The translations under genes were made by a program, and so were the position numbers. From contig JBOEGF010000018.1 in assembly GCA_050633305.1 (NCBI GenBank), forward strand, positions 96,001 to 160,000: a DNA stretch of 64,000 nt. The letters are read 5' to 3'. The notes beneath the pieces are model-generated. The model made no database searches. It was not told where the DNA came from and worked only from the letters and a program-made list of their open reading frames with translations. This DNA comes from Nannocystales bacterium. GTDB lineage: Bacteria > Myxococcota_A > Polyangia > Nannocystales > Nannocystaceae. This document shows positions 31,701-31,804 of this stretch, in pieces; position 1 is the first letter of the stretch, and each line of letters begins with the position of its first letter.

Positions 31701-31804
31701 GGCGCTCCCCATCGCACGGGCCGCACACGCCCGGCCTACAGCCAACTGCCTGTCACGCAGTCGTCCTGAAAAGACGATCAAACGGCCCGTGCACTCGGGA
31801 GCCC
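31701..31804 (+). ncRNA. Array unit 0: scaffold RNA carrying tandem anticodon stem-loops Asp(GUC) and Phe(GAA)
   Basis: GCTCCC/GGGAGC, CATC/ACTC loop, GCACGGGCCG/CGGCCCGTGC; ACTGC-CTGTCAC-GCAGT and TCGTC-CTGAAAA-GACGA. Confidence 0.75.

Follow-up and report, generated by a model that had tools for sequence, protein, structure and literature searches.

Why bacterial Y RNAs imitate transfer RNA (tRNA) is an open question; the published ones imitate its elbow, that is, the T and D arms, and carry no anticodon loop. In the passages of the bacterial survey that describe YrlA (PMC4201824), the Ro60-binding motif is GNCGAAN0-1G on the 5' strand of the stem; that survey started from TROVE-annotated genomes, and those passages report few YrlA RNAs in delta-proteobacteria. 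Passages of PMC7790460 suggest that YrlA might competitively inhibit an anticodon nuclease induced by damage. The locus described here lies in a Nannocystales bacterium (assembly GCA_050633305.1) and pairs units that imitate a whole tRNA, anticodon arm included, with one unit, called unit 0, that keeps the anticodon arms only. The window, meaning the whole 64-kb stretch of DNA that was analysed, covers positions 96,001 to 160,000 of contig JBOEGF010000018.1, and the coordinates below are those of the window. Unit 0 is the first of six co-oriented Y-RNA-like units that stand upstream of a gene for a Ro60-like protein.

We read unit 0 as a modular non-coding RNA of the Y RNA type, with a base that would dock to the Ro60-like protein and a tip that would present an anticodon-arm mimic to a loop-reading protein. 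We regard this reading as an even call. The structure of the unit, the behavior of its loops among homologs and the fold predicted for the neighboring protein are presented in turn.

Unit 0 and its two anticodon-type hairpins

The unit and its parts, from 5' to 3', are as follows.

31702 to 31804, forward strand: unit 0, Y-RNA-like, a closing stem with an apical module of three small hairpins (from the fold, the homologous units and covariation)
31704 to 31709, forward strand: outer stem, 5' strand, GCTCCC, paired with 31797 to 31802 (fold, covariation)
31710 to 31713, forward strand: 5' internal loop, CATC (fold)
31714 to 31723, forward strand: inner stem, 5' strand (fold, covariation)
31725 to 31730, forward strand: ACACGC motif, common to all units of this array and of homologous arrays (invariant alignment columns)
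31745 to 31761, forward strand: hairpin 1, ACTGC (31745-31749), loop CTGTCAC (31750-31756), GCAGT (31757-31761)
31761 to 31777, forward strand: hairpin 2, TCGTC (31761-31765), loop CTGAAAA (31766-31772), GACGA (31773-31777)
31783 to 31792, forward strand: inner stem, 3' strand (fold, covariation)
31793 to 31796, forward strand: internal loop, 3' side, with the conserved letters ACTC, which belong to the CACTCGG motif, directly 5' of the next strand
31797 to 31802, forward strand: outer stem, 3' strand, GGGAGC (fold, covariation)

Unit 0 is about 103 nucleotides (nt) long. Its closing stem is built of an outer helix of 6 base pairs (bp), a 4 x 4 internal loop (CAUC / ACUC) and a 10-bp inner helix, with the ACACGC motif just inside the latter. 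Hairpins 1 and 2 lie in the apical part; each has 5 bp and a 7-nt loop, and T31761 is common to both. The minimum free energy (MFE) fold of the 103-nt unit has both hairpins (z = -4.27, with 1 of 200 shuffles as stable), as does the MFE fold of the surrounding 131-nt stretch (z = -3.53, with 2 of 200 shuffles as stable).

Similar arrays precede the orthologous gene in other genomes, at the same position. Detection in 51 upstream regions gave 72 units, one of them a false unit in coding DNA that was dropped, leaving 71. A pattern scan of metagenomes gave 102 stretches, from which 80 loci were fetched and examined; eight passed the stem filter and three were kept. The five other loci that passed the filter were dropped, having no hairpin pair and resembling coding DNA. 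With the unit-0 type defined by the common closing stem together with two bare hairpins, seven sequences belong to it, from four genomes (the window; G003, locus L025, the same as L006; G005, locus L026, the same as L005; G018, locus L007) and three metagenome contigs (L073, L104, L109). The fold across these seven has 20 pairs, 91.4% of cells paired and 11 two-sided changes, a result that none of 500 shuffles matches. All six pairs of the outer stem are paired in 100% of cells, three of them changed on both sides, and six of the ten inner-stem pairs are changed on both sides.

The first-pass annotation, made from the DNA letters, had described two abutting anticodon stem-loops sharing one T, with neither D nor T arm, and had named their loops as those of tRNA-Asp(GUC) and tRNA-Phe(GAA). 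Both descriptions hold. Aragorn, run over the whole 11-Mb genome, gives the anticodon arm of the host tRNA-Asp(gtc) as CCGGC-CTGTCAC-GCCGG and that of tRNA-Phe(gaa) as CTGGA-CTGAAAA-TCCGG; the loops of hairpins 1 and 2 are identical to these, and the stems are unlike them. The same program finds no tRNA gene in the window, and no Rfam family, RF00005 and RF02553 included, matches across 31700-31810 at E <= 1. Unit 0 is thus no tRNA cloverleaf, having anticodon arms only.

GC-rich hairpins could match tRNA loops by accident. The form is a common one, with 205,953 hairpins of 5-bp stem and 7-nt loop outside the tRNA genes of this 11-Mb, GC-rich genome, and there is another adjacent pair with two natural anticodon loops, at C67:36798, in DNA judged protein-coding by its sequence and including the palindromic loop CTCGAGC. 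However, any of the genome's 55 anticodon loops is present in just 454 of the 205,953 hairpins (0.22%), and just 2 of the 73,480 adjacent pairs genome-wide have two of them, the pair at 31745-31777 being one. The hairpins also belong to a covarying, conserved RNA unit, and other natural loops repeat the pattern in the homologous units described below, which already contradicts an accident. We consider chance extremely unlikely.

Loop variation across homologous arrays

The seven unit-0-type sequences carry the following hairpins at the two positions.

Window: hairpin 1 ACTGC-CTGTCAC-GCAGT, triplet GUC; hairpin 2 loop CTGAAAA
L104: hairpin 1 CCTGC-CTGTCAC-GCAGG, triplet GUC; hairpin 2 loop CCGATAA
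L073: hairpin 1 CCTGC-CTCATAC-GCAGG, triplet CAU; hairpin 2 with a 6-nt loop
L025: hairpin 1 CCTGA-CTGTAAA-TCAGG, triplet GUA; hairpin 2 loop ATAGGAC
L026: hairpin 1 CCTGA-CTCGAAA-TCAGG, triplet CGA; hairpin 2 loop ATAGGAC
L007: hairpin 1 CCCCGG-CTGTTAA-CCGGGG, triplet GUU; hairpin 2 loop TTCGAGA (or a 5-nt loop)
L109: hairpin 1 CCAGC-CTGTAAC-GCTGG, triplet GUA; a different hairpin in place of hairpin 2

In hairpin 1 the letters C32, U33 and A37 are invariant in all seven, on a stem that covaries. Five of the seven loops are identical to natural loops of the host genome (Asp, Asp, Tyr, Ser-CGA and Asn), and the remaining two depart from the Met and Tyr loops at a single position, 38. All four loops taken from genomes are natural.

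The other five units of the window's array, with which the comparison can be widened, are these.

31852 to 31987, forward strand: unit 1, common closing stem, T arm and two non-anticodon hairpins (sequence, unit scan)
32001 to 32151, forward strand: unit 2, permuted whole-tRNA mimic with T arm, closed acceptor, D arm and anticodon arm CCGCC-CTCTTAA-GGCGG at 32097-32113
32258 to 32388, forward strand: unit 3, YrlA-type, Rfam RF02553 at 39.3 bits, below the gathering score of 69
32405 to 32541, forward strand: unit 4, permuted whole-tRNA mimic with anticodon arm TCAGT-TTTGGGA-ACTGA at 32495-32511
32643 to 32770, forward strand: unit 5, YrlA-type, RF02553 at 42.7 bits, below the gathering score of 69

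The closing-stem architecture is common to all six units, with ACACGC on the 5' side and CACTCGG on the 3' side in most. RF02553 scores on the sister units are 42.7 and 39.3 bits, plus partial matches of 23.6 and 20.2, every one below the gathering score, and matches to the Rfam tRNA model fall on the D-arm and anticodon-arm halves of sister units. Units 2 and 4 run in the order T arm, loop-closed acceptor stem, D arm and full anticodon arm. We read their closing stem as leaving the tRNA-like body after the anticodon arm, at the position of the variable arm.

The 71 units contain 139 distinct hairpins with 7-nt loops other than T loops, and 38 of the 139 distinct loops fit Y-U-N-N-N-R-N. Natural loops of the host genome number 12 among the 139, where 4.7 are expected if the triplet is random within each observed frame; the P of about 7e-4 overstates this enrichment because the sequences are related. 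The first-pass annotation had suggested cataloguing the loops of homologous arrays and looking for an excess of real anticodon loops. The catalogued loops prove non-random, and the excess is there, within the limit that kinship sets.

Two arms of the sister units can be followed between arrays. The arm orthologous to 32097-32113 has the loops CTCTTAA, CTGTTAA, CTATAAA and CTTCTAA in six arrays, and the arm orthologous to 32495-32511 has TTTGGGA, TTTGAGA and TTCGGGA in three. Positions 32, 33, 37 and 38 are invariant in both, change is confined almost entirely to the triplet, and the sole stem change is compensatory. Among arms with identical 5-bp stems, taken with no filter on the loop, triplet positions vary in 25 of 36 cases against 17 of 48 for frame positions (P = 0.004); the loop-variation figures rest on unfiltered versions, as prefiltering for YUNNNRN would bias the tally. 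Stems and triplets change but the frame does not, which points to purifying selection on exactly those positions that define an anticodon loop. The anticodon-loop frame is under constraint in the arrays of Nannocystaceae and Polyangiaceae, the triplet is either free or driven to change, and natural identities are favored only moderately. The earlier proposal that the anticodon loop itself is the selected payload, possibly as a decoy or sensor, is partly supported: the frame, kept in seven of seven with five natural loops, agrees with it, and the particular Asp and Phe identities, which are not conserved, lend it no support, the triplet varying even between close relatives.

The triplets are biased as well. 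U33-G34-U35 occurs in five of the seven hairpin 1 loops, including that of the window, and in 7 of 41 distinct Y-U-N-N-N-R-N loops, compared with 6.1% (1,364 of 22,253) of background genome hairpins (P = 0.012). PMC10103133 gives U-G-U in a hairpin loop as the minimal substrate of bacterial tRNA-guanine transglycosylase (Tgt), the original 1994 work being cited in PMC1635277. In its own passages on colicin E5, PMC1635277 gives YGUN in an anticodon-arm minihelix as the full determinant, with minihelices cleaved like whole tRNAs. Hairpin 1 offers C-U-G-U-C-A-C on a 5-bp stem, with U-G-U in a 7-membered loop, and the host genome encodes Tgt.

The mechanism that we propose has the RNA transcribed from the array, processed, and docked to the Ro60-like protein through the closing stem of unit 0, by analogy with other Y RNAs. 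At the tip, bare hairpins would take the place of the tRNA-like body of the sister units. Hairpin 1 would be an anticodon-arm mimic, selected for its frame (7-nt loop, C32, U33, A37), with a triplet that may be free or driven to change and that is mostly GUN (Asp/Tyr/Asn); hairpin 2 would be a less constrained accessory. The RNA would present the anticodon arm on the Ro60 scaffold to a loop-reading protein, perhaps a Tgt-like modification enzyme or an anticodon nuclease, which would thereby be competed with, sensed or recruited. The competitive-inhibitor suggestion of PMC7790460 makes a presented arm plausible.

Several observations weigh against such a role. A natural loop occurs in only one of five distinct versions of hairpin 2, the window's; because relatives do not keep hairpin 2 as an anticodon mimic, its tRNA-Phe identity is probably incidental and specific to the host genome. 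Unit 0 is absent from three of six arrays of the same genus (G001, G002 and G004), the nearest protein relatives included (96% and 95% protein identity for G001 and G002), and is therefore dispensable. Four of 12 bare units (at L029, L067, L065 and L058) are without an anticodon-like loop: those of L029 and L067 bear GAAA tetraloops, and nothing resembling an anticodon loop is present in that of L065 or in the second unit of L058. In another distant bare unit, that of L030, one of the three hairpins has exactly the Leu-CAG loop. The equivalent loop in Myxococcus-type arrays lacks U33, and the loop counts as a whole are not phylogenetically independent. The arms of sister units often bear CUA, UUA, AUA, AUG, AUU, AAU, AUC or AGG, triplets that to our knowledge no normal bacterial tRNA uses, the first two being stop-reading, and this argues against selection for real identities. 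Finally, according to passages of PMC7790460, Salmonella YrlA, which has no anticodon loop, is not cleaved by the damage-induced anticodon nuclease.

The main rival to a decoy or sensor is a structural relic, in which unit 0 is a trimmed tRNA-like Y RNA whose U-turn loops are kept as stable caps and read by nothing, and whose triplets drift neutrally. Freely varying triplets, those of no normal tRNA among them, an unconserved hairpin 2, loss of the unit in close relatives and GAAA tetraloops in other bare units all agree with this, and natural-loop matches would follow from the retained frame, a CU...AA frame making 16 of 64 triplets (25%) natural in the host genome. Natural loops, however, reach 2.5 times what the frame predicts (the 12 against 4.7 above), no genome-derived hairpin 1 loop is other than natural, GUN is over-represented, and a frame held through stem and triplet turnover speaks for purifying selection on the loop-defining positions. 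A relic seems to us rather unlikely.

The exposed triplets might instead serve as antisense or kissing loops that pair with other loops, messenger RNA or tRNA and are read by no protein. U-turn loops of 7 nt, as known from tRNA structure, offer three to five stacked bases for pairing, and fast-changing triplets would retarget it. Against this, no conserved complementary partner was found within the array, a result obtained with no systematic search for targets, and the over-representation of G34-U35 has no obvious pairing rationale. We rate a base-pairing role as very unlikely.

The anticodon-arm mimic on a Ro60 scaffold, which we prefer, could be extended to the whole array. The six units would then form a panel of decoys or tripwires that imitate anticodon arms and whole tRNAs, and tRNA-targeting toxins, for example colicin-E5-like GUN-specific nucleases, would exert diversifying selection on the triplets; unit 0, with a bare queuosine-family arm that absorbs an attack or signals it, would be the minimal form. 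We think this extension doubtful. If true, such a panel would be an RNA-based defense against anticodon nucleases.

The Ro60-like neighbor and other elements of the locus

Two conserved genes follow the array.

32826 to 34571, forward strand: 581-amino-acid (aa) protein of Ro60-like fold, a helical ring and a C-terminal VWA domain (predicted structure; VWA only in Pfam)
34577 to 35488, forward strand: conserved downstream partner gene, 303 aa, of no assigned family (homologous loci)

By sequence the 581-aa protein is a VWA protein. It matches VWA families only in Pfam, even at E <= 10, where the TROVE profile PF05731 gives no match, and likewise in NCBIfam; phmmer against PDB and a profile against PDB sequences returned VWA chains only and did not recover a Ro60 identity, and homologs bear the public name 'VWA domain-containing protein'. 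No TROVE protein is detectable anywhere in the host genome, which is 92% complete. A structure was predicted from 24 homologs, with a mean predicted local distance difference test (pLDDT) score of 76 and a predicted template modeling (pTM) score of 0.63. The model has the helical-repeat ring followed by a VWA domain that defines the Ro60 fold, and the 12 best Foldseek matches in PDB are all Ro60/TROVE proteins aligned over the full length (E 9e-9 to 1e-6), among them Xenopus and human Ro60, Deinococcus Rsr and a Thermus phage Ro60. Because the predicted fold matches Ro60/TROVE over the full length, we conclude from the model that the protein is a divergent Ro60-type protein missed by the TROVE profile. 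The locus shows that Myxococcota have Ro60-type proteins with their RNAs, labeled 'VWA domain-containing protein' and so out of sight for TROVE-based surveys.

Of 72 genomes of the family, 14 have the gene, and a species-level genome collection has it at 49 loci, almost all in Myxococcota. The 303-aa gene follows it at 46 of the 49 loci, one of these being a weak partial match. A convergent open reading frame (ORF) of 425 aa (35470-36747, reverse strand), without a Pfam match, adjoins the gene pair in many homologous loci. A paralogous group of proteins, at 42-43% identity, is found at L010 (G032) and L184-L186; upstream of it stands an unpermuted tRNA-like body (D, anticodon and T arm) inside a closing stem, with arms such as ACAGT-TTTGGGA-ACTGT.

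RNA-library contigs (poly(A)/oligo-dT assemblies) cover 31861-31993, 32008-32186, 32259-32565, 32409-32657 and the region from 32730 on; they leave unit 0 uncovered, and a library of this type says nothing on unit-0 RNA either way. A scan of 31300-32900 for a consensus promoter and terminator found nothing. A genome-wide scan for further arrays by motif and stem, unspecific as it is, gave 70 candidates, five at this array and the rest isolated, with no second array seen.

Ahead of the array are a TTGACG box (31477-31482), a 28-codon ORF (31513-31599, MSRPANTSEFGRKNHPRRLGCDVVEMLV) and, at 31647-31675, a GC-rich hairpin with a bulge and, after it, five T in a row, visible by eye. The arrays of L024-L027 and L053 are likewise preceded by the box, by an ORF that has 25-46 codons and begins with MS or MR, and by the hairpin GCCGCCCGAC...GTCGAGGCGGC. 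The region 31477-31675 looks like a leader-peptide attenuator.

Between Y units there are two copies of a second kind of structured element, at 32162-32246 and 32563-32628. It consists of a long hairpin (CAGCYGCGGGYUGU.GAGCG ... CGCUCCAGCCCGCGGCUG) and then a short one, and the copies fold with z = -6.6 and -4.6. Kin of this element occur in the arrays of L002-L006, L008 and L030, and it matches no Rfam family.

A contig of related-strain DNA (run X1) diverges from the window before 32298, just ahead of the T arm of the unit at 32258-32388. Within its unmatched part is CCACC-CTGTCAC-GGTGG, a further hairpin that has the tRNA-Asp loop and stands elsewhere in the array.

No RtcB, RtcA or RtcR gene lies next to the array, and the seven RtcB-like matches of the genome are all away from it. 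Some 21 kb downstream of the array, at 55324-55671 on the reverse strand (C18:151324-151671), two short RtcB-like fragments (27 and 21 bits) are probably what is left of a gene. The genome also has two clusters of additional tRNA genes whose anticodon loops are unusual: His/Gln/Pro at C13:26362-26583, with a split RtcB-like gene some 10 kb away, and Leu/Leu/Arg/Arg at C47:18510-19107. Both clusters may be part of mobile elements.

Comparison with described systems

In the literature outside subscription journals, the scope of our literature search, Y RNA or Ro60 in Myxococcota is represented by a passing mention of Ro/TROVE and tRNA-like elements in a jumbo-phage review, and no anticodon stem-loop decoys of the kind described here were found. 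Within that literature we file a unit reduced to bare anticodon arms as new among bacterial Y RNAs.

The array resembles YrlA/YrlB (RF02553; Chen et al. 2014, PMC4201824), as far as the relevant passages of that paper describe them, in being a set of small RNAs by a Ro60-type gene, on the same strand and several per locus; unit 0 lies about 1 kb upstream of the Ro60-fold gene and is co-oriented with it. The RNAs are alike also in their modular build, in which the two ends of the RNA pair into a stem and a variable module imitates parts of tRNA, and the sister units match RF02553. The closing stem of unit 0 covaries and is in two parts, with a conserved internal loop between them; its conserved letters (CCCAUCGC ... 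CACUCGG) only loosely recall the YrlA motif; the conserved letters of the 5' strand (CCCAUCGC / CCAAUCGCC) are not the GNCGAAN0-1G given in those passages. Unlike YrlA, unit 0 has no T arm, D arm or acceptor-like stem, and it does not reach the at least 69 bits of RF02553; it imitates the anticodon arm, which is absent from the YrlA models published in the same passages. Its partner protein, moreover, is unrecognized by Pfam TROVE.

Yrn1 of Deinococcus radiodurans can be drawn with a potential 'anticodon arm' on a 5-bp stem (PMC4201824). Its loop, however, has 6 nt, with no identity to a natural loop reported in the passages on it, whereas unit 0 has two arms with exact natural 7-nt loops. The Salmonella rsr-yrlBA-rtcBA operon, as presented in passages of Hughes et al. 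2020 (PMC7790460), is alike in tying Ro60 and Y RNAs to anticodon-loop damage, and differs in that no Rtc genes stand beside the array described here, where the conserved partner is the uncharacterized 303-aa protein. The printed idea of competition between Y RNA and tRNA gains from unit 0 a concrete minimal substrate, a 17-nt arm with U33-G34-U35.

The synthetic anticodon-arm minihelices used with colicin E5 and Tgt have a 5-bp stem, a 7-nt loop and Y33-G34-U35, exactly the form of hairpin 1. Those minihelices are laboratory constructs, whereas the arms of unit 0 are naturally encoded and stand on a Ro60-type scaffold.
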